Of a stretch of DNA of 64,000 nt, positions 1,265 to 48,741 are shown piece by piece. Where the stretch lies: sequence record PZ445526.1; one strand, written 5' to 3'. Position numbers and translations under genes: made by a program. This DNA comes from a phage. The notes under the pieces were generated by a model, which worked only from the letters and a program-made list of their open reading frames with translations, had not been told where the DNA came from and did no database searches. How positions within the stretch are numbered: the stretch's first letter is position 1; the number at the start of each line of letters is the position of its first letter.

Positions 1265-3961
1265 TCAGCCAAACAGGAAGTCTAACGAAGCTTTTTCTTC
1301 ATAGTCCATGCCAGCCGATTCACACATACCCGCAAGCGGTTTAACAAACGATTTTTGGAACAAAGTTGAGTGGTCAATCCAAGATAGCACATCAGAACGA
1401 ATTTCTTTTGGAAGTTCTGTACCCGATGGCCAAGCAATGCACTTGTCACCAAATGGATTTCCTTCACGTAATGGAAGAACCATTACTTTATTTCCATCCA
1501 AAATTGGAGCTACACCCAGACCACTAACAGCTCGACGATAAGTTAGCACACCGCGAATATGGAACGGGCATTTAAATCCTGGCCAACCTTTATCATCATA
1601 TTTCGCTATATCGTTCGCAGTTTTTACTTCAGCAATAACTTTATAGTCAAGTTGACGATATTCTTTCTCGAAGTTCTTGTAATATTCTTGGACAGACTCT
1701 TCACCTTCCTGAAGAATACGACGAATACTTTCTTCGAGAGCTTCTTGGACCGCTTTAGGCGTTGAACTCTGCTGAGTTTCCATACCCATGATTTTTAGAT
1801 GCGGTTCAGCAAATCGCTTATCTTCCATATCATATACGTTCAGAGCATAACGCTTTTTCGCTTTCCAAAATCCACCAACGCCCTTTGAACCAAGTGGAGG
1901 GCAAGAAATAGCTTCACGGTCCATATGCATCAGATGCTCGCGGTTATTCATATAATCACATAACTCACGATATGCAACATCAATCATAGGTTCCATCTTT
2001 TTCTTACCGAACTGATTCATGAATTCAACTAAATCGTTCTGCTCTTTGAATCGGTCAAGACCAACTTTTTCAATAACTTTATCTACACAAACATATACCG
2101 AATCAGTATCACCTGCTGCAATGAAATCTTCGCCATTAGTTCCGCATACTTTATTCAGATATTCATTAATTTTACGAGCAATCCACTGAATACCAACTTG
2201 GCCGAAAATTGTGATAGCAGTAGCATTTCGCAAATCATAGTAACGGAAATGAATATTACCAAGAGCACCATAAAGACTGTTAATAAGAATTTTACGGTTC
2301 AGCTGATTTGTATTAGCAAGTGTAGCCGCTTTTTCACATTCTTCAATCAAACTATTGAGAACAGATTCAGTATAATTCGATAGTTCATTTAAGAAATCAT
2401 CACTGAACTTAACATATCGTTCAACTTCAGGTTTAGTTGAACAAGACCCTGCGCCTTTCATAATAATCTTTTTAATAGCTTCGGCATTCATTTCTTCAGC
2501 GAACATTTTCTTTTTCCAATCTTTACGCTGGAAAAATACTTTAGCGATTTCCTTTGGAATGATACCTTCTTGATGCTTATCATACATCCATCCATTAGGA
2601 GAACAAGAATATTCATCACTCGGTTTAGGAGCTGTTCCTGCGATATATTCATGAATTGGATGAACTTTAAACTGACCACGAATAGTTTCAGGACTAATGT
2701 TAACCTGACGAATAATGCTCGGATACAGAGACGTCAAGTCAAAACTCATAATGTATCGACGTGCAATTGGTTTAGGTTCAAATACAAATGCACCCGGAAA
2801 ACTCTGTTTAACGTGCGAACCTTGTTGAGGAATAACCTTATGTTCACCTTTCAATGAGTTAAAAATAATAGCATCCCAAGTTTTAATAGGACTCATTACA
2901 CCAGAAAAAGGCATTTTAGCGTAATAAGACATACTTAAAACTAGATCGATAAACCCGCGAATTTTATCAATTGCTTGAACTGATTCTACGTCAATGATGT
3001 TATAACTAATGTATCGTTGATGATTAGTCTCACGAAGTTTATTAATAGGACCGTCGTATGGTAATTTACCTTTTTTGGTTTCATGTTGAGCAACTGATTC
3101 CAAAGAGAATGACGGCAAATTAGTAAAAGCAAATTTCTTGTACAAATCTAAATAATCAAGAATAGATACGCCATCAATAGAATAAATTTCTTTGCTGCCG
3201 TACATATTTTGAATTAGTTTAGATTTTACCCGACCGATTGGAGAGAAACGTTTCATACTGCGTTCGCCCAGAATCATTTTAACACGATTCATGATATACG
3301 GAACGTCAAACCCCTCAATATTCCAACCAGTAAAAATAGCAGGTCGTTTCTGTTCCCAGAGATTGATATATTCCATGAGCATATCACGCTCATTATCGAA
3401 TGGCATATAAATTACTCGGTCAAGAATTTCTTGAGGAACTTCATCACCACCTTCACAGTCAAGCTTAGCAGCTAACTTTGCATCCCATTTTGATACTGAA
3501 CCGTACATTGAATTCAAAAGGTCGAAAACATAAAAACGATCGTCAATTGAATCGTAATGAGTGATAGCATCAATTTCATATTCAGCTTTCATTGGGTCAG
3601 GAAATTTATCACCAGTAACCTCAATGTCACAGTTAGCTACACGAACAAATTTTCGGTCATAAACAATTTCTGAACCATATGTATCACTGATATAAGCGAG
3701 TTTAAAATCGTTCATACCGAGAGCTTCGAGACCGATGTCTTCCATTCGCTTCATCCAATCTCGAGCATCTTTCATTGATGGAAATTTTTGAGGAGCGCAG
3801 TTTTTACCATAGATGTCTTTGTATTTTGACTCTTCCTTACAATGCCTAAACATAGTTGGAAGATATTCTACTTCACGAGTACGTTCCTTTCCGTTTTCAT
3901 CAATATAACGTTCAACAATGTTATTTCCGACTGTTTCGATAGAGATATAAAATTCTTTCAT
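1265..3961 (-). CDS. 43: DNA polymerase (family B, with 3'-5' exonuclease)
   Basis: 898-aa ORF; exonuclease motif (ANCDIEVTG), polymerase motifs (SLYPSII, YGDTDS-like DTDSVYV); matches T4 gp43 in length and sequence as I recall it. Confidence 0.97.
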   Translation of the reverse strand: MKEFYISIETVGNNIVERYIDENGKERTREVEYLPTMFRHCKEESKYKDIYGKNCAPQKFPSMKDARDWMKRMEDIGLEALGMNDFKLAYISDTYGSEIVYDRKFVRVANCDIEVTGDKFPDPMKAEYEIDAITHYDSIDDRFYVFDLLNSMYGSVSKWDAKLAAKLDCEGGDEVPQEILDRVIYMPFDNERDMLMEYINLWEQKRPAIFTGWNIEGFDVPYIMNRVKMILGERSMKRFSPIGRVKSKLIQNMYGSKEIYSIDGVSILDYLDLYKKFAFTNLPSFSLESVAQHETKKGKLPYDGPINKLRETNHQRYISYNIIDVESVQAIDKIRGFIDLVLSMSYYAKMPFSGVMSPIKTWDAIIFNSLKGEHKVIPQQGSHVKQSFPGAFVFEPKPIARRYIMSFDLTSLYPSIIRQVNISPETIRGQFKVHPIHEYIAGTAPKPSDEYSCSPNGWMYDKHQEGIIPKEIAKVFFQRKDWKKKMFAEEMNAEAIKKIIMKGAGSCSTKPEVERYVKFSDDFLNELSNYTESVLNSLIEECEKAATLANTNQLNRKILINSLYGALGNIHFRYYDLRNATAITIFGQVGIQWIARKINEYLNKVCGTNGEDFIAAGDTDSVYVCVDKVIEKVGLDRFKEQNDLVEFMNQFGKKKMEPMIDVAYRELCDYMNNREHLMHMDREAISCPPLGSKGVGGFWKAKKRYALNVYDMEDKRFAEPHLKIMGMETQQSSTPKAVQEALEESIRRILQEGEESVQEYYKNFEKEYRQLDYKVIAEVKTANDIAKYDDKGWPGFKCPFHIRGVLTYRRAVSGLGVAPILDGNKVMVLPLREGNPFGDKCIAWPSGTELPKEIRSDVLSWIDHSTLFQKSFVKPLAGMCESAGMDYEEKASLDFLFG

Positions 3962-3998
3962 AGATATTCCTTAGTTTATAGCCCGAGTTATTAGGCTC
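3962..3998 (-). promoter_or_regulatory. gene 43 translational operator (hairpin plus Shine-Dalgarno) for autogenous repression
   Basis: Sense RNA GAGCCUAAUAACUCGGGCUAUAAACUAAGGAAUAUCUAUG directly 5' of the gene 43 ATG; identical to the T4 operator as I recall it. Confidence 0.7.
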
Positions 3999-4019
3999 TT
4001 GATATATTATACTCCAAAT

Positions 4020-4037
4020 AAGGGGCCGAAGCCCCTT
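4020..4037 (-). terminator. UUCG-tetraloop hairpin (terminator or RNA-stability element) upstream of gene 43 leader
   Basis: Minus-sense RNA AAGGGGCUUCGGCCCCUU; GC stem with UUCG loop followed by a U-rich tract. Confidence 0.55.
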
Positions 4038-4039
4038 GC

Positions 4040-4261
4040 TTAAATTAGTACTATTTGTCGGTGAAAAATTGTCATTCCATCTGCATTAATTGACTTAACG
4101 ACTGCGGTAAAGTGTTTTTGTTCTGGATGAATTAATTTTTGAAATTCTACCTGAAATTTTAGTTGAAGGTTTTCTGGTAAATCAAAAAGTGTTTCTGTTG
4201 CAGAAAGATTATATTTTTCTTTAAGAGACGCCATGTATTCTTGTGGAGTTATAGCAGTCAT
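4040..4261 (-). CDS. hypothetical small protein between regA and 43
   Basis: Track ORF 4040..4303; likely ATG start at 4261 (MTAITPQEYMASLK...) overlapping the regA stop; ends just before the hairpin at 4020. Confidence 0.35.
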   Translation of the reverse strand: MTAITPQEYMASLKEKYNLSATETLFDLPENLQLKFQVEFQKLIHPEQKHFTAVVKSINADGMTIFHRQIVLI

Positions 4262-4262
4262 A

Positions 4263-4631
4263 TTAATTACCAATCGTATATTTAGGAACGAGTTTCCATT
4301 CATGTTTTTGTTTAAAAGAGATAACTCGGAAGTTATTAGTTAAATCTTTCATAAAAGTTCTTTGACCGGGAACGATTTCAATCAGTCCCCAATCTTCTAA
4401 CAACCATGCAATCGAATCACGACGAACTTCATCTTCTTCTGTCATTTCAACTTGGCGACCATCCATACGAAGCATTTCTTTAAAATGAACGATATAGTAT
4501 AGTCCTTTTTTCTGAAGAATATGACAGGACTGATACAGAACTTTATCTTTATTATTAGCAATTCCCATACGAGTCAAAGTTTCTTTTACTTTCAGAAAAT
4601 CTTCAGGTTTTTTAAGAGTAATTTCAATCAT
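4263..4631 (-). CDS. regA: RegA translational repressor
   Basis: 122-aa ORF MIEITLKKPEDFLKVKETLTRMGIANN...; size, sequence and position (between 62 and 43) as for T4 RegA. Confidence 0.9.
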   Translation of the reverse strand: MIEITLKKPEDFLKVKETLTRMGIANNKDKVLYQSCHILQKKGLYYIVHFKEMLRMDGRQVEMTEEDEVRRDSIAWLLEDWGLIEIVPGQRTFMKDLTNNFRVISFKQKHEWKLVPKYTIGN

Positions 4632-4632
4632 T

Positions 4633-5196
4633 TTACCATTCCAATGCTAGTTTTTTGAGTTGTTTCTGTTCTTTTACGTTCTTAGTCACTTCTTTTAAAA
4701 AATCATCCGTGACTAAACCTTTTAGTTCTTTTAATACTAAAGGAAGTTTTCCATTTTTAGTAAGAATTGATTTATAGTTAATTGCATCATTTGTATTAAC
4801 TTGATACCGCTTAGCAAGTAACTTAATAATCAATACTTCGGTGGAATCTTCAACCAGTTTTGCCCATTTACCATATCTTTTACCACGAGGAACTGCAGCC
4901 ATCAGATAATTAAAATGAGCTTCATCACTTAAACCTGATCCAATTAAATTCATAGCATATACAGCTGGCATGCACTCTGGAAATTGTGATAATGCATTCT
5001 CAACCATGTATTTTGAATAATCTTTTTGAGCAATAGAGCATTTAGTTTTATTATTAATAGCTCCAATTATTTCAAAAAATTCATTTTCAGCTTTTTCTTT
5101 AAAAGAATCAGCAGCGGATTGGACAGCTGTCCAATCTTTTGAATACCAAGCAACTTGATGCTCGTTTAATTGAATATCATCTTCAAATAAGCTCAT
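4633..5196 (-). CDS. 62: clamp-loader small subunit
   Basis: Start at internal ATG ([18 protein letters not shown]...), 187 aa; overlaps gene 44 stop; T4 gp62-like. Confidence 0.85.
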
Positions 5197-22070: not shown

Positions 22071-23072
22071 TTACTTAATTAACTGTAAAGCTTGTTCCAG
22101 ACGATCAAGACGATTAACAGATTCTTCCCAAATCCTTTTAGCCTGCTCATATTCTTTCTGCGCTTTATTAGAAATTTCTAGAACTTCTTTATAAGCTTTT
22201 TCTAATGCAATAACTTCTGGACGAATTTCTATCGGTTCAGGTGAATCATCAAGACATTCCATTAGTTCCTCAAGGGTAGTTTCTTCTTTAGGAGTATTCA
22301 CAATTTCATCACATTTTTGTTGGTAAATTTCTTTATCAGTAGGTGAGTACGCGCACTTTACTTCACGAAGACTAATTACAATTTTATATCCTTCCCAACC
22401 GCATATATTCTTAAAAGGATAAGTATGAATATTTTCTACTGTTTCCATACAAAGTAATGCGGTCTCTAATTGACGAGTTATAGTGCTAGCAATTGAGAAA
22501 AATTTATTAATATTCTTTTGGTTAGTTTCTGGTGTAAAAAATCCATAATTCACAAAAATAGATACTTTATTTTTATCAAGTTCATATTCTTTTATGATAA
22601 TCATATCAGAAGCCAAAGGATGAATTTGACGATAATCGCCATAACATAATTTAGAAGCTGATTTTAGAATCTGTCCTTTGAAAAGTCTGAAATTACTAAT
22701 CCAACGACGAGTAAAAATATTCTCAGGGTCTTCTTTATTATTAAGATGATAAGAATTAACATCACCGAACCAATTATATCCTACTACATCTTTGGTTCGT
22801 TTAATTTCTTTCCCAAAATTACCAAGAATATCCCGATTAACCAAATATGAAAGAAGACGAGACTCTTTAAAGGTTTTCTTGATAACATCTTTATCTACAC
22901 GGCTAGAAATTTTACGAATTTCATGAATAAATTTAGTAGAAGAAACAATACTTGCATCAACACTATTGAGCCATTGATTGATAATAGAAAGAACGCTATT
23001 TTGGCCAAACATCGGTATAGCTTTATCATCAATAACGCTATTGAATGATTTGATATATTCGTTACGAGTCAT
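22071..23072 (-). CDS. hypothetical protein with C-terminal coiled coil (333 aa)
   Basis: ATG at 23072 (MTRNEYIKSF...); the track ORF extends into the promoter from a non-ATG start; C-terminal tail KEYEQAKRIWEESVNRLDRLEQALQLIK. Confidence 0.6.
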   Translation of the reverse strand: MTRNEYIKSFNSVIDDKAIPMFGQNSVLSIINQWLNSVDASIVSSTKFIHEIRKISSRVDKDVIKKTFKESRLLSYLVNRDILGNFGKEIKRTKDVVGYNWFGDVNSYHLNNKEDPENIFTRRWISNFRLFKGQILKSASKLCYGDYRQIHPLASDMIIIKEYELDKNKVSIFVNYGFFTPETNQKNINKFFSIASTITRQLETALLCMETVENIHTYPFKNICGWEGYKIVISLREVKCAYSPTDKEIYQQKCDEIVNTPKEETTLEELMECLDDSPEPIEIRPEVIALEKAYKEVLEISNKAQKEYEQAKRIWEESVNRLDRLEQALQLIK

Positions 23073-23129
23073 ATTAATCTCCTCAGTAGAAAGTAAGAAC
23101 ATTATACCACATCCTTGTGGCAAAGTAAA

Positions 23130-24158
23130 CTAGTTCAGTGCATTTAGTGCATTGTTCAGTTTAGAACGTTGCTTTGTCAGATTTTGAACCCTTGACTGAG
23201 CTTGTTTTAACACCTTTTCAGCTTCTAACACTTCATTAGTTGCTTTAACGAGTTCAGCATCTACTGCTTTAAGAGACTTCTCAATCGCATCTGCATGCCA
23301 TTTTTCAACAGGTTTAAGACTCGGATTTTCAATAGGAAGAAAATTCACTTTATTGAATTTCCATGCATCCTTATTACCTGAACTATACATCCAAAATTTA
23401 GGATCGTTTGATAAGTAATTGGATAAATTTAAATTTAAGTTATCTTGTACTTCTTGCTTTTTCTCTTGTGTAACTTCGTCCTTTCTCAAAAAATCATATT
23501 TAAATGAAACAATCATATCAAGTTCATATGATGTTGTATCTAACTTAAATCGTTCAAAACGAGGTAAAATCTTAGATTGAACAGCAGCAACAACATCCAT
23601 ATACTTAAATGCTTCTGTCAACTGTGATTTAAGGCATTCACAAATTGAAAGAGAATTTTTTGTATTAGGTTTAAAGCTAATTCGTGCAGTTCTATTATTT
23701 TCTTTTAACGGTCTTACTTCCATCTGAAGAGTATAACCATCAAATTTCAGGTTCTTTAAGTTAATATCAGAACCTTTTAATCGACTTGCTGTGGACAAAA
23801 TTTGCTTTAATTGTTTACGGAATAGAGCAATAAATCTCCATTCAAGACGATAATGATTTGGATTAAAAAATCCTGTTGATAAATCGACCTTACTTTGACC
23901 AACGCCTTGAACAAATAGAGGATTTTTATAATCAATAGTTTTACAGAAATCGGTGAGCTGTTCACGAGCAGTCATTTGCGTAATATACCCTGCTTTACTA
24001 AAATTACGCACCCATTCACTGCTATTCGTATACTTAAAGTGATGAATAACACGATTAACTTTATCAGGGTCTAAATTATTTTCACACAAAAATGTCATAA
24101 CATCACGAGTATAGCTGGCATTACGAACCATATCTTCAATTTGAGAACGAGTTTTCAT
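23130..24158 (-). CDS. hypothetical protein with C-terminal coiled coil (342 aa)
   Basis: C-terminal tail AELVKATNEVLEAEKVLKQAQSRVQNLTKQRSKLNNALNALN. Confidence 0.6.
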   Translation of the reverse strand: MKTRSQIEDMVRNASYTRDVMTFLCENNLDPDKVNRVIHHFKYTNSSEWVRNFSKAGYITQMTAREQLTDFCKTIDYKNPLFVQGVGQSKVDLSTGFFNPNHYRLEWRFIALFRKQLKQILSTASRLKGSDINLKNLKFDGYTLQMEVRPLKENNRTARISFKPNTKNSLSICECLKSQLTEAFKYMDVVAAVQSKILPRFERFKLDTTSYELDMIVSFKYDFLRKDEVTQEKKQEVQDNLNLNLSNYLSNDPKFWMYSSGNKDAWKFNKVNFLPIENPSLKPVEKWHADAIEKSLKAVDAELVKATNEVLEAEKVLKQAQSRVQNLTKQRSKLNNALNALN

Positions 24159-24166
24159 GGTGTTCC

Positions 24167-25072
24167 TTAAGATTTAAGTAAATCAACAATTTTAATTAAT
24201 TTTTCACGTTCAGATTTAGCTTTACTACTCAATCCGGATAGTCTAAAGATTTCATCGTCATATTGTTGAATAGAAATATTCAGCTCTTCAATTTGCTTAT
24301 TAAAATAATCAATTTGTTCAGAATGTTTTTCGTTACTACGAACTGGTACATGGTTTGTAGGCAATTTAGTTAAACTGGATTCATCCGGGCGATAAATTAA
24401 AATACAACTTGAACCAATCGGACATTTAGCACCAGACACATATTCTAATGTTCCAGCTTCTTTTAAAATTTCAAAAGCTAAACAGAGATGATGACCCATA
24501 TTGGCATAATCTGTAGAGTGAGCTCTGACGTAATAATCATCTCCACGAGTGCTAAATTTAAAGCATTTAAGGTCTTCTGTATTATTAGTTTTAAAAATCA
24601 TTTGTTTATCTAGACCTTTAGCCAATCGAGCGCCTAATGCTAATAATCGTCGTTGATTTTCCCACAAATCCGCAATCATTTGATCGAATGATAATTTCGG
24701 CATTAGTCGGCCATAAAGGTCATATCCTTTATTATAATTGCGAAGGATTTCACTCGCATTAATGCGAGACAACGCTCCAATTTTATTAAGGGCTTTCATG
24801 ATGCGATTAGATAAACTCATTCCAGACCCGTTTGTTCGCTGTAAATGTTTTTCTAATCCAAATCCAATATCAACTTTAAATTTATCTAAAATTTTGGCAT
24901 GAACGTCTCTGTCAATAACATTCAAATCCAAAGTTGGGTTAAATCTATGAAAAAATTTATCTGGCTCTCCACGACGAAATACAGTCCATTCATTCATCAT
25001 TTTTTTATTAACTAAAGATTTAATTACTGCATTGACATTATTAATTACTACTGACATATTTTCCTCACTCAA
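24167..25072 (-). CDS. hypothetical protein with C-terminal coiled coil (301 aa)
   Basis: C-terminal tail QIEELNISIQQYDDEIFRLSGLSSKAKSEREKLIKIVDLLKS. Confidence 0.6.
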   Translation of the reverse strand: MSEENMSVVINNVNAVIKSLVNKKMMNEWTVFRRGEPDKFFHRFNPTLDLNVIDRDVHAKILDKFKVDIGFGLEKHLQRTNGSGMSLSNRIMKALNKIGALSRINASEILRNYNKGYDLYGRLMPKLSFDQMIADLWENQRRLLALGARLAKGLDKQMIFKTNNTEDLKCFKFSTRGDDYYVRAHSTDYANMGHHLCLAFEILKEAGTLEYVSGAKCPIGSSCILIYRPDESSLTKLPTNHVPVRSNEKHSEQIDYFNKQIEELNISIQQYDDEIFRLSGLSSKAKSEREKLIKIVDLLKS

Positions 25073-25466
25073 TTTTACTAATTACGCGGAATAAGATTGA
25101 ACAGACTATATAAGTACCACATATAGATTGAACTAATGCCATTCCAAAGAACCAAACAATATTATCAAACCATGTCTGTTTTACGTCGAAAGGACGTAAA
25201 CTTACAGTAATATTATCACCTTTTTCTATTGAAGAATACATCTCTGGTGAAATATATTCACTAAATCTATAACCGTCTTTGAGTTCATATACAGCAATAA
25301 ACGATAAACTAGACCCCTTTCCTTGAGTTCCTGTAAGGGTATTAACTACAGTAACATCATAATCTTTATAATGCATATAATCATTAATTGCGTAATAACC
25401 ATATGCAATTACTATACATAAACAACATATCAATAAATTCAATCTTTTAATTATCAACTGTTTCAT
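25065..25466 (-). CDS. membrane protein (N- and C-terminal hydrophobic segments flanking a soluble domain)
   Basis: 133-aa ORF: hydrophobic segment LLICCLCIVIAYGYYAI, then a soluble region, then WFFGMALVQSICGTYIVCSILF. Confidence 0.5.
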   Translation of the reverse strand: MKQLIIKRLNLLICCLCIVIAYGYYAINDYMHYKDYDVTVVNTLTGTQGKGSSLSFIAVYELKDGYRFSEYISPEMYSSIEKGDNITVSLRPFDVKQTWFDNIVWFFGMALVQSICGTYIVCSILFRVISKIE

Positions 25467-25521
25467 AATAATCTCAATTAAAAGGGCTTAGAACCATTAT
25501 ACCATCCTTGGTATAAAGCGG

Positions 25522-26049
25522 TTATGCGAGTACCGTCTTTAACCGTTCTTCAAACTTCCGAAGAGTATTTTGGCGTTCAGCTCTTTGCTTTTTGTAAGTT
25601 TCAATACGCTCTGAAATGAGAGTGTATCGTTCATTTACTGATTCTTTCATAAAATCAGGAATTTCACGAGAAGCTTTAATCTCGTCAAATTTATCAATAA
25701 CAGCTTGCTCTTCAGCAATTAAGTTATCATACATCAAAATATCTTTCTTGATGAACTCAATATCTTCTTGAGTTACGCGAGATAATTTAGATGCTTTATC
25801 CTTTTTGTACTGTTCGTTAGTATCACGAGACCAGTGTAATGTACGATTTTTATTCGTATTCTTGTAAATTTCTACAATACCAATCTCATCAATAATAACG
25901 ATCCAATTCCAACGGGATTTGTAAATTTGTCCTCCGTCAACCGTGATTTCACCTCCGATTGAGATGTCATTAAAGAACTTGCTTTGTGCTTCAGATTTAA
26001 ATTTACCATCATTGTAGTTTACCAAGTTGAAAATATCTTTAGCATTCAT
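25522..26049 (-). CDS. hypothetical protein
   Basis: ATG at 26049 (MNAKDIFNLVNYNDGKF...); the track ORF extends through the upstream early promoter. Confidence 0.55.
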   Translation of the reverse strand: MNAKDIFNLVNYNDGKFKSEAQSKFFNDISIGGEITVDGGQIYKSRWNWIVIIDEIGIVEIYKNTNKNRTLHWSRDTNEQYKKDKASKLSRVTQEDIEFIKKDILMYDNLIAEEQAVIDKFDEIKASREIPDFMKESVNERYTLISERIETYKKQRAERQNTLRKFEERLKTVLA

Positions 26050-26077
26050 TTTCTGTTCCTCCGTAGTTGATAGTTGT

Positions 26078-26107
26078 ATAGTACCACAGAGGAACGGTCT
26101 TGTAAAC
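26078..26107 (-). promoter_or_regulatory. T4-type early promoter
   Basis: Sense GTTTACAAGACCGTTCCTCTGTGGTACTAT plus the conserved leader ACAACTATCAACTAC. Confidence 0.6.
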
Positions 26108-26109
26108 AA

Positions 26110-26424
26110 CTAAAAGAAACTTCTTTCACAATTTTTTCCACTAAACCATGCGCTAACCGCTTTCTTAGTCTCAGGAGCAGTGTTATCCATAAACCATTCA
26201 AAAGCAGCCTTTTTATGATTCTGGAGGGCTTCTCGGGCTTTAATCTGCTCACGGTCTATTAACACTAACATATGAGCCTTTCTTGTCACCAGGGGCTTCT
26301 TATGATTTTTTGAATATTCCCAATCATTTGTCCATCGCATCGTTGTTGCGAATTGAAGTACAGCTTCTTTAATCTTAGTTTCGTAAATTTCACGAGCCTT
26401 TGAGTATAACATCATTACCTCCAT
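26110..26424 (-). CDS. hypothetical protein
   Basis: 104-aa track ORF. Confidence 0.5.
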   Translation of the reverse strand: MEVMMLYSKAREIYETKIKEAVLQFATTMRWTNDWEYSKNHKKPLVTRKAHMLVLIDREQIKAREALQNHKKAAFEWFMDNTAPETKKAVSAWFSGKNCERSFF

Positions 26425-26513
26425 TTACTAGTTTAATTCTAGTCATCTTTTTGATGGCAGTCCATATAATCTATTTCTGAACTGCCTTTTTGTCATAGAA
26501 GTCCTCTTATGAA

Positions 26514-27482
26514 TTATTTCAGAAGAGTAACCTCAGCGATTTCTTCCCAACCGTTTTTGTCGGTCATAATAAAGTCAGCAAGATAAAGAGCAGTACGCAG
26601 TGAAACATTGCGTAAACGATTAACATTGACTTTCATCCATGATAATGCTTTATAAGTTTCTTCATCAGAAAGACCGCGCTTTTGCATCATGTCGGTTGAA
26701 AGAATAACATCTTCAACCCTGACCATAATTTCTTCATTAGTGTGAACACCCAAATCCAAATAAACTGAGCGGGACACTAATGCTTGTAAATGTGGAGCAA
26801 GTTTAGTACCACGGTCTAATTCGCGGTCAATGTCAACGTTTGTGATAAAAACAATCGTTCCTTTAAATTCAAACTCACGCTCAATGCCTTTTTCTTCTAA
26901 GTAAGAAGATGCAGTGCTCCAGCAGACTTTACGGGTCTCTCCAGTGTCCAGAGCAGCTTTCAGAAGATTAAGAATGTCCATATCAGAGAAAACATCCACA
27001 TCATCAATCAAAAGGACAGAATTCTCTTCACGATTATTCCAAAGCTGTTCATAAAGACCAATACCAGAGATTTTACCATTAATGCTTTTATATTCAATGT
27101 ATCCAATATCATTTGCTTTATTTAAAGCTTTATCTAAAGAATACGTTTTACCAATACCCGCCGCACCAGAGATAATTAATGAACGAATGTTTCCGTTAAT
27201 AATACCATTCGTCATCATTCCCATAACATTAAATCTTTTATTAATGCGGGTTTTCATATCTTCATATGATTCTTTAACTTCTTCAACTTTTACACCATCA
27301 TATGAAATGTCTGATTTGTAAACCCAAACACCGCGACGTTTACCGTCAATTTCAACAAAAACTTTACCATCTCCTTGTGCATCTACCGGAGCATTATCTG
27401 GGAACCATTCACCTAAGAGCTCAAAAGTTCCAGAGATTTCTTTACCGAAGTAGATACCCTTATTGATAGTTACAGTTTTCAT
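26514..27482 (-). CDS. P-loop NTPase (AAA-like), hypothetical
   Basis: ATG at 27482 (MKTVTINKGIYFG...); Walker A GAAGIGKT and Walker B LLIDDVD after an N-terminal domain of about 120 aa. Confidence 0.6.
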   Translation of the reverse strand: MKTVTINKGIYFGKEISGTFELLGEWFPDNAPVDAQGDGKVFVEIDGKRRGVWVYKSDISYDGVKVEEVKESYEDMKTRINKRFNVMGMMTNGIINGNIRSLIISGAAGIGKTYSLDKALNKANDIGYIEYKSINGKISGIGLYEQLWNNREENSVLLIDDVDVFSDMDILNLLKAALDTGETRKVCWSTASSYLEEKGIEREFEFKGTIVFITNVDIDRELDRGTKLAPHLQALVSRSVYLDLGVHTNEEIMVRVEDVILSTDMMQKRGLSDEETYKALSWMKVNVNRLRNVSLRTALYLADFIMTDKNGWEEIAEVTLLK

Positions 27483-27516
27483 TTTATTCTCCAAATCCGT
27501 ATCAGTTGATAGTTGT

Positions 27517-27546
27517 ATAGTACCATAAAGCTTTATGCTTGTAAAC
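27517..27546 (-). promoter_or_regulatory. T4-type early promoter
   Basis: Sense GTTTACAAGCATAAAGCTTTATGGTACTAT plus conserved leader ACAACTATCAACTGATACGGATTTGGAGAAT before the ATG at 27482. Confidence 0.6.
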
Positions 27547-27574
27547 CGTTTTGTGAAAAAATTTTGAAATAAAA

Positions 27575-27594
27575 AGGGAGCCCGAAGGCTCCCT
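27575..27594 (-). terminator. terminator hairpin (UUCG-type loop) downstream of ORF 27596..28609
   Basis: Minus-sense AGGGAGCCUUCGGGCUCCCU followed by UUUUUAUUU; an early promoter follows directly. Confidence 0.6.
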
Positions 27595-27595
27595 A

Positions 27596-28609
27596 TCATT
27601 TATAATAACTTCGGTGGTTTTCAAGATAGACCTTCTCAAGGAAGTCATCCCAGAAACCCATGTCTACTTTTTGCTGCATACCGTTCTTAGAAGCTTCAGT
27701 AGATGCTGCTTCTACTTGATCGACCACATCTTCCAAAAACTCTTGAACTGTTTTAAATGGATGTTTACCCAACTTCACGTCGAGAATAAATGGAGCATCT
27801 TGGAGTGGATAAACCAAGTCACCAGTTTTGTAAATTTCCAATAGTTGAAGTCCACCACGACAAGCATGGCTCAGAGCTTTCCAGTCAATACCTTCATTGG
27901 CTTCGGCCTTACGAGCACGTTCACCGTATTCAGCATCTAATTTGTTCAGTGACTGCTTAAGCTCAATAAGAGAAAGCGTTGTCTGATATTTACGACCCAA
28001 CACAGTGTAGAACGTTTGTGGGCCTGTTTTCTCATGATTATGGAACACCCATTCACAGAATTCGTTTTCTGGAAGACGATGCTTAATATCTTCAACTTTA
28101 GTACGACGCTGCTTAATGGAACCGTCTTCTTGGTAATCAACCCATTGCTCAGGGATTTGATTAACTACTTTCAATACATCGCGTAATGCAGCCAAACGAG
28201 AACCCTTGACACCGTATTTAGAAGCTTGCTTGCGAACATATCCTAAATAGGATTTCATGTTAGTCGTATAAAAACGAGAACGGTTGTCTTGAATAAACTT
28301 CCACACATCAGGCAAATCAGATTTAACCACTAGTTCAGGTGGAGTGTGAAGCATATCCAATGCTACAGTTTCACCATCTGCTGCTAATTTAAAGAAATAT
28401 TTAAGACTGTATAGTTCATGGTCAATATCATCTTTAGTGTTTTTAGATGATGTGTTGTTAGTGTTTTTACTCATGTGCTCTTTAACATTTCCAATAAGAA
28501 TATCACGAGCAGGAGGAACAAAGATTTCTTTAAAATCTACATCAGATTCTAGAGTAGAAGTTCCATAAAGATGACTACCAAAATAGCTTTTCATTACTGT
28601 TTTCATCAT
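27596..28609 (-). CDS. nucleotidyltransferase-fold protein (Pol-beta-like), hypothetical
   Basis: 337-aa ORF; N-terminal hG[GS]-x10-DxD pattern (FGSHLYGTSTLESDVDF) typical of minimal nucleotidyltransferases; the rest is uncharacterized. Confidence 0.55.
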   Translation of the reverse strand: MMKTVMKSYFGSHLYGTSTLESDVDFKEIFVPPARDILIGNVKEHMSKNTNNTSSKNTKDDIDHELYSLKYFFKLAADGETVALDMLHTPPELVVKSDLPDVWKFIQDNRSRFYTTNMKSYLGYVRKQASKYGVKGSRLAALRDVLKVVNQIPEQWVDYQEDGSIKQRRTKVEDIKHRLPENEFCEWVFHNHEKTGPQTFYTVLGRKYQTTLSLIELKQSLNKLDAEYGERARKAEANEGIDWKALSHACRGGLQLLEIYKTGDLVYPLQDAPFILDVKLGKHPFKTVQEFLEDVVDQVEAASTEASKNGMQQKVDMGFWDDFLEKVYLENHRSYYK

Positions 28610-29067
28610 TCAGCCTTATATTCAATAACAGGACATACTTTAGCTTTACGAGCTTTTAAAAATTCAACGATAACCGATTTCTTGGGTTGAATAGGAGGTA
28701 AACCTTTATACGCCCTATCAATATTTTCTACGTGTAAAGCATAATCCTTTTTCCATTTATAATCTTTATATTTTTCACGCAAATGTGCAGGAATAACAAA
28801 TGAACCGATAATAAGTAAAACAACCAAAAGCGCAAGTATAAATGCTGATGGAAGCAAAGTCCATAAACTACCAAAAATAATCCAACGCTGTAGGCTTTCT
28901 GCACAAATAATTGTTAGCCCTACGAGTATAGCACATCCAAAAATAGAAACGAAAAATGTAGGAATGGCAATAGACCAAAAATATGCGCATAGTGTCTTAG
29001 GTCGTTGCCATTCATCGTTAAACAATTTGAATAATTTATAGTGCCAAGAGTTTTCATTAATAATCAT
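28606..29067 (-). CDS. membrane protein, hypothetical
   Basis: 153-aa ORF with three predicted hydrophobic segments. Confidence 0.55.
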   Translation of the reverse strand: MIINENSWHYKLFKLFNDEWQRPKTLCAYFWSIAIPTFFVSIFGCAILVGLTIICAESLQRWIIFGSLWTLLPSAFILALLVVLLIIGSFVIPAHLREKYKDYKWKKDYALHVENIDRAYKGLPPIQPKKSVIVEFLKARKAKVCPVIEYKAE

Positions 29068-29069
29068 AA

Positions 29070-29591
29070 TTATCCTTTCATTGAAGGCGTAACGGTTGTT
29101 AAATACTTAATCATAGCTTCAGCTTCTGATTTTGATAATGAAATTTCTCCATTGTTTTGACGAATAGAAATAAAATCCGGATGACGGTCACCACCAGCTT
29201 TTAAAACACACATATAAGTATCAACTTCGCCTTCAATATTTGAAATGATTGAAGCAGTTCCACATGAATGCGGTTTTTGATAAATCAATACAGCTTTTCT
29301 TCCGCCATTTGACTGCTCATAGGCTTTTAATACATCAAACAAATCAGTTCTTTTATCAATAGCTAAAATGTTATTTTCATCTTCAATGTTAAATCCTTCG
29401 GATACTTCATAAAGCGTTACCCATAAATCACCAATGTCAATAACAGCATTTACTTTTCCACGGCTTTCAAGGGTATGACAAATTTTCTTGATTTCGTCAT
29501 AACTCATTTTAATAATATCATCTCCTTGAATAAGGAAGATGTCATTTTTAAATTCAACACGAATTAAACCGCTTCCACTTGAAATAAACAT
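29070..29591 (-). CDS. hypothetical protein (paralog of the next gene)
   Basis: 173 aa; shares GFNIE(D/S)E and the C-terminal ...EAxAxIKYLxxVxPxM motif with ORF 29598..30143. Confidence 0.55.
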   Translation of the reverse strand: MFISSGSGLIRVEFKNDIFLIQGDDIIKMSYDEIKKICHTLESRGKVNAVIDIGDLWVTLYEVSEGFNIEDENNILAIDKRTDLFDVLKAYEQSNGGRKAVLIYQKPHSCGTASIISNIEGEVDTYMCVLKAGGDRHPDFISIRQNNGEISLSKSEAEAMIKYLTTVTPSMKG

Positions 29592-29597
29592 ATTTCC

Positions 29598-30143
29598 TCA
29601 CTTTGAAATCATAGTTGGAATAACAGAATCAAGATAAGTCTTTAGCGCAATAGCTTCGTCTTTGGTAAATGTGACAATATGTGCTCGAAAATCATCAATT
29701 TGACGAATAGTTAAGACATCTCCATCTTCATAACATTTTGATACGTTTAAAACAGTTTCATCATTCTGATCGCAAGCGTTAGTAATAATAGCATTGCAAT
29801 TTTTAAGCCATTTTAAACTATGTTTTCTTTCATTAGAATAATAAAAATATTTAATCTTAGTTATAAAATTATCCCAATTATTAATTGATAAGCATATTGA
29901 CTCGCTTTCAATATTAAATCCTGGGCATAAAGAATAAAAATGAATTTTATGCTCATCATTAATGCTTACAATTTTATCAGTATAAGAATTTTCAATTTGG
30001 GTTAAATGAATAATTTCGTTAGGCGTAAAATATAACATATCGTCTTCTTGTGTCAAACGATACATATTATTTACTTTTTCTATAGCCAATTCACCAAAAA
30101 GTGAACTAACTTCTAATACTAATCGTTTCGCCTCGCCCATCAT
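29598..30143 (-). CDS. hypothetical protein (paralog of the previous gene)
   Basis: 181 aa; same shared motifs; tandem duplication. Confidence 0.55.
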   Translation of the reverse strand: MMGEAKRLVLEVSSLFGELAIEKVNNMYRLTQEDDMLYFTPNEIIHLTQIENSYTDKIVSINDEHKIHFYSLCPGFNIESESICLSINNWDNFITKIKYFYYSNERKHSLKWLKNCNAIITNACDQNDETVLNVSKCYEDGDVLTIRQIDDFRAHIVTFTKDEAIALKTYLDSVIPTMISK

Positions 30144-30667: not shown

Positions 30668-30850
30668 TTAAACTCTCGTATTATGATCGATAATTTCATC
30701 AAGAAACATATCTAACGCTTCTAAAGCATTATCAACTTTAGCTTCAAATTCTTCAATACCTGATAAGGCAAAGTTAATGCGTTCCTCATCTGCTTTACGA
30801 ATTAAAGCTACCAATTCCTTAATTTTATCCGCTTGTTCGATACTAATCAT
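30668..30850 (-). CDS. hypothetical protein
   Basis: Track ORF 30668..30886; probable ATG at 30850 ([16 protein letters not shown]...). Confidence 0.4.
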   Translation of the reverse strand: MISIEQADKIKELVALIRKADEERINFALSGIEEFEAKVDNALEALDMFLDEIIDHNTRV

Positions 30851-31038
30851 TATTCCACCACATATGAAAGAGAGAATATTGCACACGCCATGTGAGTTGC
30901 AACTTCATCACACATATTATAACGTTTCTTGAGAAGTTCTACAAGTTCTTCACTAGTAACTTCATCCATGTCGACGAAAAAATCACCATTAATGATGACG
31001 TAGATATTTCCTTCTTGATTGAGTGCTTCAATTTTCAT
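30850..31038 (-). CDS. hypothetical protein
   Basis: ATG at 31036-31038 ([21 protein letters not shown]...); the track ORF starts at a non-ATG codon inside the promoter. Confidence 0.45.
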
Positions 31039-31066
31039 GATGTTCTCCTCTTTATCCGATAGTTGT

Positions 31067-31096
31067 ATAGTACCACAGCTCAAACGGAAAGTAAAC
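31067..31096 (-). promoter_or_regulatory. T4-type early promoter
   Basis: Sense GTTTACTTTCCGTTTGAGCTGTGGTACTAT, immediately downstream of the terminator at 31112-31129. Confidence 0.6.
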
Positions 31097-42854: not shown

Positions 42855-42885
42855 GTTGTTTTCTGTATCAGTAGTTGATATTGAT

Positions 42886-42915
42886 ATAGTACCATGGAAG
42901 AACAGGGATGTAAAC
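42886..42915 (-). promoter_or_regulatory. T4-type early promoter
   Basis: Sense GTTTACATCCCTGTTCTTCCATGGTACTAT; near-identical to the promoter at 1117-1146. Confidence 0.6.
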
Positions 42916-44431: not shown

Positions 44432-44507
44432 TGGTCGAGGCAGTAGGGATCGAACCTACGACCCAGGACTTAGAAGGTCCTTGCTCTTCCTTCTGAGCTA
44501 TGCCTCG
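44432..44507 (-). tRNA. tRNA-Arg (UCU)
   Basis: Cloverleaf by hand: acceptor CGAGGCA/UGCCUCG, T-loop GUUCGAUCC, anticodon loop CUUCUAA, encoded CCA. Confidence 0.8.
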
Positions 44508-44511
44508 GATT

Positions 44512-44586
44512 TGGCGGACGTGATAGGATTCGAACCTATAACCAATCGCTTAACAGGCGATCGCTCTGCCATTGAGCTACACATCC
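44512..44586 (-). tRNA. tRNA-Asn (GUU)
   Basis: Acceptor GGAUGUG/CACGUCC (one G-U pair), D-loop with GG, anticodon stem AUCGC/GCGAU, loop CUGUUAA, T-loop UUCGAAU, encoded CCA; not part of the canonical eight T4 tRNAs as I recall them. Confidence 0.65.
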
Positions 44587-44590
44587 AAAT

Positions 44591-44677
44591 TGGTGGGGAG
44601 TGATGGAGTCGAACCACCCGAGTCGCAATGACAATGGATTTACAGTCCACACCGCTACCTCTACGGGATAACTCCCC
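44591..44677 (-). tRNA. tRNA-Tyr (GUA), long variable arm
   Basis: Acceptor GGGGAGU/ACUCCCC, anticodon loop CUGUAAA, 15-nt variable arm with its own stem, T-loop UUCGACU, encoded CCA; not part of the canonical T4 set as I recall it. Confidence 0.65.
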
Positions 44678-44687
44678 CAAATTAATT

Positions 44688-44762
44688 TGGTGGCCCTGGG
44701 TGGAATTGAACCACCATCTGGCGATTATGAGTCGCTTGCTTGAACCTTCCAGCTACAGGGCC
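44688..44762 (-). tRNA. tRNA-Ile (CAU; Met-type anticodon, likely lysidine-modified as in T4)
   Basis: Acceptor GGCCCUG/CAGGGCC, anticodon loop CUCAUAA, T-loop UUCAAUU, encoded CCA. Confidence 0.75.
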
Positions 44763-44763
44763 T

Positions 44764-44840
44764 TGGTGCTGATTGACGGAATCGAACCGCCGACCTTCTC
44801 ATTACAAGTGAGTTGCTCTACCTACTGAGCTAAATCAGCA
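44764..44840 (-). tRNA. tRNA-Thr (UGU)
   Basis: Acceptor UGCUGAU/AUCAGCA, anticodon loop CUUGUAA, T-loop UUCGAUU, encoded CCA. Confidence 0.75.
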
Positions 44841-44844
44841 AAAC

Positions 44845-44934
44845 TGGCGGAGGCGATAGGATTTGAACCTATGAGTCGCCGGAGCGACTGCCGGTTTTCA
44901 AGACCGGTGCATTAAACCACTCTGCCACGCCTCC
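44845..44934 (-). tRNA. tRNA-Ser (UGA), long variable arm
   Basis: Acceptor GGAGGCG/CGCCUCC, anticodon stem CCGGU/ACCGG with loop CUUGAAA, long variable arm, T-loop UUCAAAU, encoded CCA. Confidence 0.8.
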
Positions 44935-44936
44935 AG

Positions 44937-45010
44937 TCTCCGTGGCAGGATTTGAACCTACGACATTCTGCTCCCAAAGCAGACGCTCTACCAAACTGAG
45001 CTACACGGAG
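44937..45010 (-). tRNA. tRNA-Pro (UGG), CCA not encoded
   Basis: Acceptor CUCCGUG/CACGGAG, anticodon loop UUUGGGA, T-loop UUCAAAU; 3' end abuts tRNA-Ser (Pro-Ser dimer arrangement known from T4). Confidence 0.8.
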
Positions 45011-45020
45011 TAAATTAAAT

Positions 45021-45094
<74 letters not shown>

Positions 45095-45099
45095 AAATT

Positions 45100-45186
45100 T
45101 GGTGCGAGAAGTGGGACTCGAACCCACAAGGAAATCATTCCGCAGCATTTTAAGTGCTGTGCCTTTACCAATTTGACCATTCTCGC
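45100..45186 (-). tRNA. tRNA-Leu (UAA), long variable arm
   Basis: Sequence GCGAGAAUGGUCAAAUUGGUAAAGGCACAGCACUUAAAAUGCUGCGG...GGGUUCGAGUCCCACUUCUCGCACCA matches T4 tRNA-Leu as I recall it. Confidence 0.85.
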
Positions 45187-45187
45187 G

Positions 45188-45260
45188 CTGGGAATAAAGG
45201 ACTCGAACCTTTGCATCCTGGAATCAAAATCCAGTGCCTTACCAACTTGGCTAATTCCCA
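45188..45260 (-). tRNA. tRNA-Gln (UUG), CCA not fully encoded
   Basis: Acceptor UGGGAAU/AUUCCCA, anticodon loop UUUUGAU, T-loop UUCGAGU; directly abuts tRNA-Leu (Gln-Leu dimer arrangement). Confidence 0.8.
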
Positions 45261-48016: not shown

Positions 48017-48741
48017 TATAGTACCTTTAGTGTATTTTTAATTTTAGAAAAAAGTTCTTCAAGAGAACCATCGTTTGTAATTACTAAATCGCCATCACGA
48101 ATTGGCAATCCAGCTTCTGTAATATGTGTATCATTGGATTTTTGACCAGGACGAACTACATGAATTACTGTAGCACCCATCGCCCTAGCCGCATCCATTT
48201 CATGATCTTGACGGGTATCAGGAACGATATAATAATCATAACCTGAGTTAAATTTATCAAGATAATCTAAAGCAAATAATTTTACCCAGTACATGCGGTC
48301 GAAGTTATTAACAATCAAATCCGTACCTAGGGCTTGCATCAGACGACGGACTGACCATTGATCTTCAATATTATTTATAACGTCAATAATCTTGTTAAAT
48401 GCTACGGAATTAACTGATTCTTGTCCTTCGTCATCAAAAACAAACACACCCTTAATTGGGCTTTTACCATTAAGATAGCAAAATGCTTGTTCCATAATCG
48501 TGATTACTTCTAATTTAGTCAGATTTAAATTAGTCTCACGATCATAGTCAATTCCTTCAAACTCTTTACGAGTTAAGCAAGGATAGTCAGTGTTTGCTGC
48601 AAATACTCCCCATGCATAAGCCAATGCATCCTTAATAGGACCAGCAAGTTGGTATTTAACTGCAGAATAATTGCTCATGATAAAATCAGCAGTAGTATCT
48701 TTTCCACTACGCTTTACACCGCTTAAAAAGATTAGTTTCAT
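48016..48741 (-). CDS. 1: deoxynucleoside monophosphate kinase
   Basis: ATG at 48741 (MKLIFLSGVKRSGKDTTADF...), 241 aa; P-loop GVKRSGKDT; T4 gp1-like. Confidence 0.9.

Follow-up and report, generated by a model that had tools for sequence, protein, structure and literature searches.

The two open reading frames (ORFs) analyzed here are orthologues of the T4 genes nrdC.11 and nrdC.10. Our results support a model, to which we would give roughly an even chance, in which they are accessory early genes that lie side by side through a gene order kept by descent, with NrdC.11 refilling cleaved tRNAs and NrdC.10 working as a separate AAA+ ATPase. Both ORFs are present on the minus strand of the 64-kb window, by which we mean the whole stretch of phage DNA that was analyzed; the initial annotation had called them co-directional without giving a strand. 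The ORF at 27596..28609 (337 aa) is 98% identical to T4 NrdC.11, and that at 26514..27482 (322 aa) is 99% identical to T4 NrdC.10. The source genome is a Tequatrovirus with the gene order of T4 at this locus, so that an earlier suspicion of nrdC.10/nrdC.11 identity is borne out by both sequence identity and gene order. The same annotation had implied that the locus was unrecognized, which is not the case. The nucleotidyltransferase (NTase) domain of NrdC.11 was noted in 2006 (PMC1524935), the T4 protein is named as an RlaP in a recent preprint (PMC12776372), and both genes, together with the fold, the family and the refilling hypothesis for NrdC.11, are already known from databases or from that 2025 preprint. 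A literature search on the two genes found no functional study of either one.

By its sequence, NrdC.11 is a "long-type" RlaP-family (PF10127) nucleotidyltransferase of the Pol-beta fold. The ORF product begins MMKTVMKSYFGSHLYGTSTLESDVDF, and translation may in fact begin at the second ATG (28606), which we considered because the T4 annotation gives 336 aa. The active-site motif FGSHLYGTSTLESDVDF (28532..28582, minus strand) carries the hG[GS]-x10-DxD signature that had been recognized from the start, as G11 and S12 followed by D23 and D25, and a third carboxylate, D63, is encoded at 28421-28423 on the minus strand. The Pol-beta catalytic set is therefore complete: an hG[GS] loop, a DxD and a third Asp on the following strand. 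Residues G11, S12, S22, D23, D25 and D63 are invariant in a 94-sequence alignment (A3) of homologues 35–54% identical to NrdC.11, and hhalign pairs D63 with D88, an invariant residue of canonical short RlaPs. Because the NTase motifs are invariant across these 94 homologues, and the Walker motifs of NrdC.10 across 33 of its own, we do not regard either set as a product of chance.

Family membership is also supported by profile searches. The PF10127 RlaP profile matches residues 7-135 of NrdC.11 (profile positions 23-142 of 249) with 41.5 bits against a gathering cut-off of 23 (E = 1.6e-10), in keeping with the Pol-beta-superfamily assignment first proposed, and the protein also falls in phrog_388, labelled "nucleotidyltransferase". 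With hhalign, alignment A3 matched the canonical short RlaPs over the NTase domain with a probability of 93.8% (E = 1.7e-7). Both matches cover the N-terminal ~130 residues only; for the C-terminal two-thirds (~200 residues), neither Pfam nor hhalign detected homology to canonical RlaP. A wider search for homologues yielded 3174 representative clusters. An AF2 model built from a 22-sequence alignment of close relatives was too poor for fold comparison (pLDDT 54.6, and under 50 in the NTase domain), and neither the sequence nor the 94-sequence profile matched an entry in our copy of the PDB, which apparently lacks the PfRlaP crystal structure. That structure comprises an NTase domain, a helical domain at the C-terminus and a last helix that closes over the end.

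The activity that we predict for NrdC.11 is modelled on its characterized relatives. RlaPs from Pseudomonas fluorescens and P. aeruginosa add one or two NMPs to an RNA 3'-OH, preferably with Mn2+ (Carruthers, Fatma, Huang, bioRxiv Dec 2025, PMC12776372). They accept any of the four NTPs with little specificity, stop after one or two additions, and act on RNA rather than on free nucleotides, proteins or DNA; cleaved-tRNA mimics are favored, and the broken-anticodon end of a tRNA mimic is preferred over its acceptor end, although the enzymes extend many other RNAs of the cell too, full-length tRNA and rRNA among them (PMC12776372). The same study places T4 NrdC.11 in cluster 5 of its similarity network and lists it as an RlaP member of unknown function. 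NrdC.11 shares with the Pseudomonas enzymes the PF10127 family and the hG[GS]...DxD...D core, and its cellular relatives also occur beside rtcB. It differs in being long (~335 aa), with only the N-terminal ~130 residues alignable, in that the phage gene is not next to a ligase, and in that its activity is predicted only. By analogy, NrdC.11 most likely extends RNA at the 3'-OH by one or two nucleotides without a template, and catalysis would proceed through a pair of divalent metal ions and the residues D23, D25 and D63.

The genomic surroundings of cellular homologues point toward RNA repair. Full-length homologues (32–53% identity) were found in 80 bacterial or archaeal loci, 15 of which contain RtcB, a Pnkp ligase domain, Hen1, TROVE/Ro60 or a T4-type Pnk within 5 kb, as confirmed with Pfam. 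In one of these loci (L203), rtcB is followed directly by an NrdC.11-like ORF (35% identity to NrdC.11 over the full length, E = 4e-60) and then by a short RlaP. Such tandem pairs, in which the long member is a full-length NrdC.11 homologue (32–41% identity) and a short canonical RlaP lies just downstream, occur in 20 of 70 cellular loci. In contrast, no short RlaP was found within 8 kb in any of 121 phage loci, and in T4's closer relatives it is nrdC.10 that fills the downstream slot. A search for a second, short RlaP across the window also found none; weak matches at 48169-48615 fall in an ORF starting MKLIFLSGVKRSGKD with a P-loop, which we take to be gp1 dNMP kinase, and were rejected as chance matches. 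Having no short RlaP beside it, the long type in phages may depend on another component, or its activity may differ.

T4 itself carries the enzymes with which a refilling activity could cooperate. The T4 polynucleotide kinase PseT (Pnk) and RNA ligase 1 (Rnl1) repair tRNA and so counter the PrrC anticodon nuclease; sealing by this pair needs a 3'-OH and a 5'-phosphate. The end chemistries would fit, as RlaP leaves the 3'-OH that a 5'-phosphate ligase requires, but the roles differ: PseT and Rnl1 heal and seal, whereas an RlaP would supply a missing nucleotide. Davidov and Kaufmann reportedly described excision of the wobble nucleotide by RloC in 2008 and are said to have proposed that it frustrates phage RNA repair. 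In the model that we favor, an RloC-type "excising" anticodon nuclease removes a nucleotide from a cleaved host tRNA, NrdC.11 likely refills it, and PseT and Rnl1 would then reseal a full-length anticodon loop. A role for phage RlaP in restoring nucleotides lost to RloC-type nucleases has been predicted before (PMC7824862). Of the three roles suggested initially, counter-defense acting on tRNA or RNA ends comes closest to this model, in the form of broken tRNA ends and RNA repair rather than CCA addition.

A more specific version of this idea, which we advance tentatively and think has somewhat less than an even chance of being correct, is that phage tRNA repair has a third, so far missing, step performed by T4 NrdC.11, which would restore the wobble nucleotide that RloC-type nucleases excise to defeat Pnk/Rnl1 repair; a bolder addition would be that in T-even phages NrdC.10 has replaced the "short RlaP" partner of cellular RNA-repair operons. 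If true, wobble-nucleotide refilling would represent a further round of the arms race between PrrC and T4, and T4 would carry a complete heal-refill-seal pathway, offering a test of the idea that RloC excision frustrates phage RNA repair. The arrangement of the T4 genome sets some distance between the components. The rnlB, pseT and rnlA genes lie 53–82 kb from nrdC.11 (80 kb or more for the PseT and Rnl1 genes), a genetic link to nrdC.11 has not been reported, and a search for RNA ligase or Pnk genes near NrdC.11 in phages found an Rnl1 homologue within 8 kb in only 2 of 78 viral loci, at 3.5–6.4 kb. The neighbors of nrdC.11 at the present locus are a membrane protein, y05I-like proteins and nrdC.10, and RNA-repair genes are not among them.

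The alternative that survives best, although we consider it unlikely, is that NrdC.11 tails RNA for offense or regulation instead of repair; it would extend the 3' ends of host tRNA or mRNA in the manner of the MenT and AbiEii toxins, or tag transcripts for degradation during host takeover. The measured activity of RlaP, with its indifference to the NTP and its many cellular RNA substrates, fits such a role and is chemically the same as that of tRNA-blocking NTase toxins, and the early region around nrdC.11 encodes many functions of host takeover. MenT and AbiEii also resemble RlaP, and by analogy NrdC.11, in using a Pol-beta fold to add a few nucleotides to RNA 3' ends. However, NrdC.11 matched none of the AbiEii, MenT or MNT families in Pfam and no PADLOC model, and it has no antitoxin context; cellular members of its clade are found in RtcB, Pnkp-Hen1 and Ro60 repair operons rather than in toxin-antitoxin pairs. 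The preference of RlaP for the broken-anticodon end is likewise more easily reconciled with repair.

In NrdC.10, the Walker motifs reported initially are both real and conserved. Walker A (GAAGIGKT, residues 106-113; 27144..27167, minus strand) has G106, A107, G109, G111 and K112 invariant in 33 homologues, as are D160 and D161 of Walker B (LLIDDVD, residues 157-163; 26994..27014, minus strand). The sensor-1 residue N215, the candidate arginine finger R238 and the sensor-2 residues R291/R296 are invariant in the same set, and the sensors and the candidate finger sit where expected in the AF2 secondary structure. The AAA+ core of the protein is combined with a helical lid and preceded by an N-terminal beta domain (residues 1-61), so that the AAA+ set is complete: Walker A and B, sensor 1, a candidate arginine finger, sensor 2, an alpha-beta-alpha core and a lid. 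We place the start at 27482 because the N-termini of homologues and a GGAG Shine-Dalgarno sequence fit there. A longer, 361-aa ORF reaching 27599, present in the mechanical ORF list, was rejected, its extension crossing the promoter and terminator described below.

On these features NrdC.10 is a catalytically complete AAA+ ATPase, but without an assignable clade or partner. No Pfam, NCBIfam or PADLOC family reached threshold, and comparisons with other AAA+ proteins (MoxR-type NorQ and CbbQ, sigma-54 activators, HslU, DnaA/Hda, ORC/Cdc6 and RFC) gave identities of 10–17% and scores that were flat across many clades; unlike NorQ and CbbQ, NrdC.10 has no VWA or other partner. Its homologues have so far been seen in phages only, and the more distant relatives match from about residue 60-80 onward, the N-terminal beta domain being confined to closer, T4-like relatives. 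When the neighbors in 42 viral NrdC.10 loci were clustered, none was conserved outside T4's closer relatives; the small conserved neighbor groups of distant relatives comprise unknowns, a topoisomerase subunit, an adenylosuccinate synthetase and a radical-SAM-like protein, and suggest no shared theme. NrdC.10 is presumably an oligomeric remodeller or loader. It is a true orphan among phage AAA+ ATPases, widespread and catalytically intact.

The signals between the genes indicate independent expression, as had been proposed. An intrinsic terminator (AGGGAGCC-UUCG-GGCUCCCU then UUUUAUUU; 27565..27594, minus strand), found by a terminator scan and RNA folding, begins 2 nt past the nrdC.11 stop codon; its G+C-rich stem of 8 bp is capped by a UUCG loop and followed by a U-run, and its predicted fold (−17.1 kcal/mol, z = −3.64) was not equalled in stability by any of 200 shuffles. 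It is followed by a T4 early-type sigma-70 promoter for nrdC.10 (GTTTACA-N17-TGGTACTATA; 27516..27546, minus strand), which the promoter scan reads as TTTACA/17/TACTAT with an extended TG and which also fits a stringent T4-early pattern, with 5 matches in the window where chance would give 0. By this evidence nrdC.10 is transcribed separately from nrdC.11.

Comparative data argue against an obligatory link between the two genes. Half of the viral NrdC.11 loci (39 of 78) show the same arrangement, with NrdC.10 downstream across gaps of 112–2290 bp that can hold inserted ORFs, and no such case was found below ~51% identity. Conversely, among 42 viral loci with NrdC.10, NrdC.11 was present within 8 kb in only 9. 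The adjacency spans T4-like phages of Escherichia to Acinetobacter, all of them among T4's closer relatives, and on one 183-kb contig (loci L013 and L099) the two genes are ~39 kb apart. Records with NrdC.11 outnumber those with NrdC.10 in Klebsiella phages (286 versus 149), whereas the reverse holds in Vibrio phages (59 versus 121). An NrdC.10 homologue was found near none of 80 cellular RlaPs. Because the phage distributions of the genes are discordant, functional pairing is not supported, and neither is the partnership of nucleotidyltransferase and ATPase implied at the outset; NrdC.10 appears to be an unrelated neighbor of NrdC.11.

We nonetheless considered a two-component system, in which the AAA+ protein would load, unfold or recycle an RNA or RNP substrate for NrdC.11 and might stand in for the short RlaP. 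Its attractions are the co-directional, adjacent arrangement in half of the viral NrdC.11 loci and the partner-like short RlaP that occupies the corresponding slot in cells. We judge it improbable given the strong terminator and separate early promoter, the variable and interrupted gap, the many phages that have one gene only or both far apart, the missing cellular NrdC.10, and the miscellaneous genes that adjoin its distant relatives.

The remaining alternatives are weaker still. The window contains a cluster of 10 tRNA genes, and the ability of RlaP to extend RNA 3'-OH ends could suggest a phage enzyme for adding or repairing CCA on T4 tRNAs that lack it. However, T4 tRNAs without CCA reportedly mature through the host cca enzyme (Deutscher, Foulds and McClain are said to have found this in 1974). 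NrdC.11 has no match to CCA-adding or poly(A) polymerase families, with PF10127 its only Pfam NTase match at E ≤ 1, RlaP discriminates little between NTPs and ends its extension after one or two of them, and a jumbo-phage survey keeps CCA-adding enzymes and RlaP as distinct families (PMC7824862); we regard this role as very unlikely. Least probable of all is that NrdC.11 makes or intercepts nucleotide second messengers (as a CD-NTase- or OAS-like enzyme, or as an anti-CBASS or anti-Thoeris factor), the signalling role raised initially: the Pol-beta fold and the known targeting of nucleotide signalling by phages speak for it, but Pfam and PADLOC gave no CD-NTase, OAS or known defense-system match for either protein, RlaP acts on RNA, and the clade's genomic contexts are those of RNA repair.

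Finally, both genes are non-essential, being dispensable on laboratory E. coli in two genome-wide T4 screens, and nrdC.11 shares its accessory status and its dispensability on K-12 with pseT and the Rnl1 gene. CRISPRi-ART scored nrdC.10 and nrdC.11 as "Not Fit", its label for genes without an effect on fitness (PMC11879866 supplement), and HIDEN-SEQ classed both as "Non-essential". Among the leading host-dependent genes that the HIDEN-SEQ main text gives for clinical isolates, the PseT orthologue is named but nrdC.11 is not. Consistent with the screens, the segment from nrdC.11 to mobD.3 can be deleted in T4 (PMC9825161).

The segment studied is T4-type (Tequatrovirus), and the two ORFs that the initial annotation suspected of being T4 nrdC.10 and nrdC.11 are indeed their orthologues. 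The ORF at 27596..28609 (minus strand, 337 aa) shares 98% identity with T4 NrdC.11, the one at 26514..27482 (minus strand, 322 aa) shares 99% with T4 NrdC.10, and the gene order from nrdC.5 through nrdC.11 around them is the same as in T4. The 2.5 kb around both ORFs has 98.5% identity with Escherichia phage APTC-EC-2A; 729 phage records match this query, 480 of them at no less than 80% coverage.

NrdC.11 belongs to the RlaP family, whose full Pfam name is "RNA repair pathway DNA polymerase beta family". PF10127 is the one Pfam family above threshold (41.5 bits against a cut-off of 23), and the protein also matches PHROG 388, "nucleotidyltransferase". The segment FGSHLYGTSTLESDVDF provides G11-S12 and D23-x-D25. 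Among 94 aligned homologues with just 35–54% identity to the query, no variation occurs at the catalytic residues G11, S12, D23, D25 and D63 (the third acidic residue) or at S22, N57, Y132, K244, H248, R251, P268 and K279. The family match and the invariant glycine, serine and three aspartates thus uphold the nucleotidyltransferase fold first proposed from the sequence motif. With canonical RlaP, the alignment is limited to the N-terminal ~130 residues in both Pfam and hhalign (93.8% probability and E = 1.7e-7 for the NrdC.11 homologues), and D63 lines up with the third aspartate of the canonical proteins; the C-terminal two-thirds is predicted to be specific to a "long" subtype of about 335 aa. 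An exhaustive search returned 3174 representative clusters at E ≤ 0.001, of which 797 reach E ≤ 1e-30; the best 150 of the 3174 are mostly full-length, at about 310–350 aa. An AF2 model built from close relatives was poor (pLDDT 54.6), and sequence and profile searches found no solved relative. We consider it very likely that NrdC.11 is an RlaP-family RNA nucleotidyltransferase. Both genes are already catalogued in T4, and the leading hypothesis for the nucleotidyltransferase is already in the literature. RefSeq annotates T4 NrdC.11 as a nucleotidyltransferase, and a COG3541 nucleotidyltransferase match was published in 2006 (PMC1524935).

The cellular relatives associate this clade with RNA repair. 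Scanning one genome per prokaryotic species, we recovered 80 loci with full-length NrdC.11 homologues (32–53% identity) in Desulfobacterales, Nitrospirota, Alphaproteobacteria, archaea and others. Neighbour clustering with a Pfam check placed an RNA-repair gene at most 5 kb away in 15 of the 80: RtcB, a Pnkp ligase domain, Hen1, a TROVE/Ro60 protein or a T4-type polynucleotide kinase-phosphatase. The NrdC.11 clade therefore itself has the RNA-repair association that defines RlaP. In bacteria and archaea, the long gene is often directly followed by a short, canonical RlaP paralogue, a tandem found at 20 of the 70 cellular loci having enough downstream sequence (L203, L128, L130, L142, L145, L148, L155, L159, L165, L170, L175, L176, L180, L182, L191, L193, L194, L196, L197 and L199) and often within RtcB or Pnkp/Hen1 operons; one tandem short RlaP scores 221.7 bits across the whole PF10127 model. 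At L203 (1770-4895), rtcB (1770-3104) is followed after 5 nt by the long gene (3109-4074; 35% identity to NrdC.11, E = 4e-60, full length) and then by the short one (4083-4895). No short RlaP was found within 8 kb at any of 121 viral loci or in the 64-kb window. This distribution suggests that cells carry a two-nucleotidyltransferase module, which phages reduced to one gene.

RlaP takes its name from an association with RNA ligases, and the family was predicted to replace nucleotides that are lost where RNA breaks (PMC7824862). In a December 2025 preprint, two Pseudomonas RlaPs whose genes lie between rtcB and rtcA extended RNA 3'-OH ends by one or two NMPs from any of the four NTPs or dATP, preferred Mn2+, did not use DNA or protein as substrates, favoured the broken-anticodon end of a cleaved-tRNA mimic, and partly rescued aminoacylation of tRNA without one nucleotide (PMC12776372). 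The same preprint explicitly marks T4 NrdC.11 as an RlaP member in similarity-network cluster 5, "of unknown function" (PMC12776372). We infer a corresponding activity and substrate for NrdC.11, as well as cooperation with T4 polynucleotide kinase (PseT) and RNA ligase 1 (Rnl1): D23, D25 and D63, with two metal ions, would add 1–2 untemplated nucleotides onto RNA 3'-OH ends. In a host with an RloC-type nucleotide-excising anticodon nuclease, NrdC.11 would refill the shortened 5' tRNA half, and PseT and Rnl1 would then reseal the anticodon loop at normal length. Both enzymes are present in T4, and they require a 3'-OH and a 5'-phosphate. We hold this refill role only tentatively, at slightly less than an even chance, and three other readings compete with it, in which NrdC.11 is an offensive RNA-tailing enzyme, performs CCA addition or takes part in nucleotide signalling. 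The initial annotation had raised the last two as well as counter-defence; it was partly right, in that a possible counter-defence role on tRNA stands alongside the fold, the ATPase and independent expression.

Neither gene is required on laboratory E. coli. CRISPRi-ART knock-down scored nrdC.10 at -0.87 and nrdC.11 at 0.19, both "Not Fit" (PMC11879866 supplement). In transposon sequencing, insertions were recovered at 69 of 71 nrdC.10 sites and 65 of 68 nrdC.11 sites, both genes being classed as "Non-essential", and in one conditional comparison of that supplement neither gene changed significantly (10.1101/2025.11.20.689424 supplement). A genome-reduced T4 without the block from nrdC.11 to mobD.3 is viable (PMC9825161). 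Dispensability is compatible with an accessory, host-specific role such as counter-defence, although it does not pinpoint that role.

NrdC.10 is still an orphan, predicted to be an AAA+ ATPase with a complete catalytic set and known to date from phages only. Across 33 homologues with identity down to 55%, the Walker A residues G106, A107, G109, G111 and K112, the Walker B residues D160 and D161, sensor-1 N215, the lid residues R291 and R296, and R238 at the end of helix 4, the AAA+ arginine-finger position, are all invariant. In a confident AF2 model (pLDDT 88.6), residues 1-61 form an N-terminal beta domain of five strands; after it come a linker helix, the alpha-beta-alpha AAA+ core, which carries an insertion between helix 3 and strand 4, and a helical lid. 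These residues and this fold bear out the ATPase proposed from the Walker motifs. Structural neighbours are AAA+ proteins throughout, in a flat ranking (best Foldseek E about 1e-5, TM about 0.4), and the closer ones are all viral and uncharacterised, for example in Aeromonas phage 25 and Roseobacter phage RDJL Phi 1. No Pfam, NCBIfam or PADLOC model reached threshold, and PHROG 1250, which includes the protein, is of "unknown function". Distant relatives keep the ATPase module with the N-terminal domain altered or lost, a variability typical of the substrate-recognition domains of AAA+ proteins. No common theme links the genes around these distant relatives.

A true partnership between NrdC.10 and NrdC.11 is a fourth rival, but the evidence says that the two are not functionally paired, or at least not necessarily. 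NrdC.11 lies within 8 kb at just 9 of 42 viral NrdC.10 loci, the nine closest relatives. Conversely, nrdC.10 lies downstream at 39 of 78 viral NrdC.11 loci, with gaps of 112–2290 bp and inserted ORFs, and at none of the 78 below about 51% identity; in three phages at 82% NrdC.11 identity it is not nearby. On one 183-kb contig (loci L013 and L099), the genes are about 39 kb apart. The balance of records shifts sharply with the host: among Klebsiella phages, 286 have NrdC.11 and 149 NrdC.10; among Vibrio phages, the figures are 59 and 121. No NrdC.10 homologue occurs at any of the 80 cellular RlaP loci. Separate transcription signals also argue against partnership. A terminator hairpin begins 2 nt after the nrdC.11 stop codon (minus strand; 8-bp G+C-rich stem, UUCG loop, U-tract; -17.1 kcal/mol, z = -3.6), a T4 early-type promoter, GTTTACA-N17-TGGTACTATA, lies 3' of it (27516-27546, minus), and a GGAG ribosome-binding site lies ahead of the nrdC.10 ATG. 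The stringent pattern GTTTAC-N14-17-TGGTAYTATA occurs five times in the window, against 0 expected by chance, always on the minus strand (1116-1146, 26077-26107, 27516-27546, 31066-31096 and 42885-42915). These intergenic signals are genuine, and the independent expression anticipated from them holds. Inheritance of gene order within this part of the T4 family best explains why the two genes are neighbours. When translated in frame, the promoters at 26077-26107, 27516-27546 and 31066-31096 encode a recurring "...GTIQLS..." peptide in the spurious or spuriously long ORFs 26514..27599, 25522..26109 and 30850..31083.

Immediately upstream, a predicted 153-aa membrane protein (28606..29067, minus; phrog_944, similar to RB32ORF096c) abuts nrdC.11 in an ATGATGA stop/start overlap, its TGA stop overlapping both candidate nrdC.11 start codons. 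Just upstream of it sit two tandem MobD.1/y05I-like "putative transcription factor" paralogues (29070-29591 and 29598-30143, minus; PF24449 plus PF24448), in contrast to the single mobD.1 at this position in the 40-58 kb stretch of T4; the homing endonuclease gene mobD, upstream of nrdC.11 in T4, is missing here. The nrdC.x block as a whole is functionally dark, except for nrdC.1, an anti-Septu factor according to a recent preprint on HIDEN-SEQ, a genome-wide T4 screen. The orthologues of nrdC.5 (23130-24158, minus) and nrdC.9 (26110-26424, minus) match DUF7235 (417.7 bits) and DUF7203, respectively, and those of nrdC.6, nrdC.7 and nrdC.8 match no Pfam family. Among GenBank records matching 23000-28600 (for example, OK274152 and MH809535), many T4-like genomes call nrdC.1 to nrdC.11 "thioredoxin", including the AAA+ ATPase and the nucleotidyltransferase; this label seems to be a mistake propagated from the nrdC prefix of the gene names. 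Finally, a cluster of 10 tRNA genes (44432-45260, minus; Arg, Asn, Tyr, Met, Thr, Ser, Pro, Gly, Leu and Gln) gives this phage extra tRNA genes relative to T4, which has 8.
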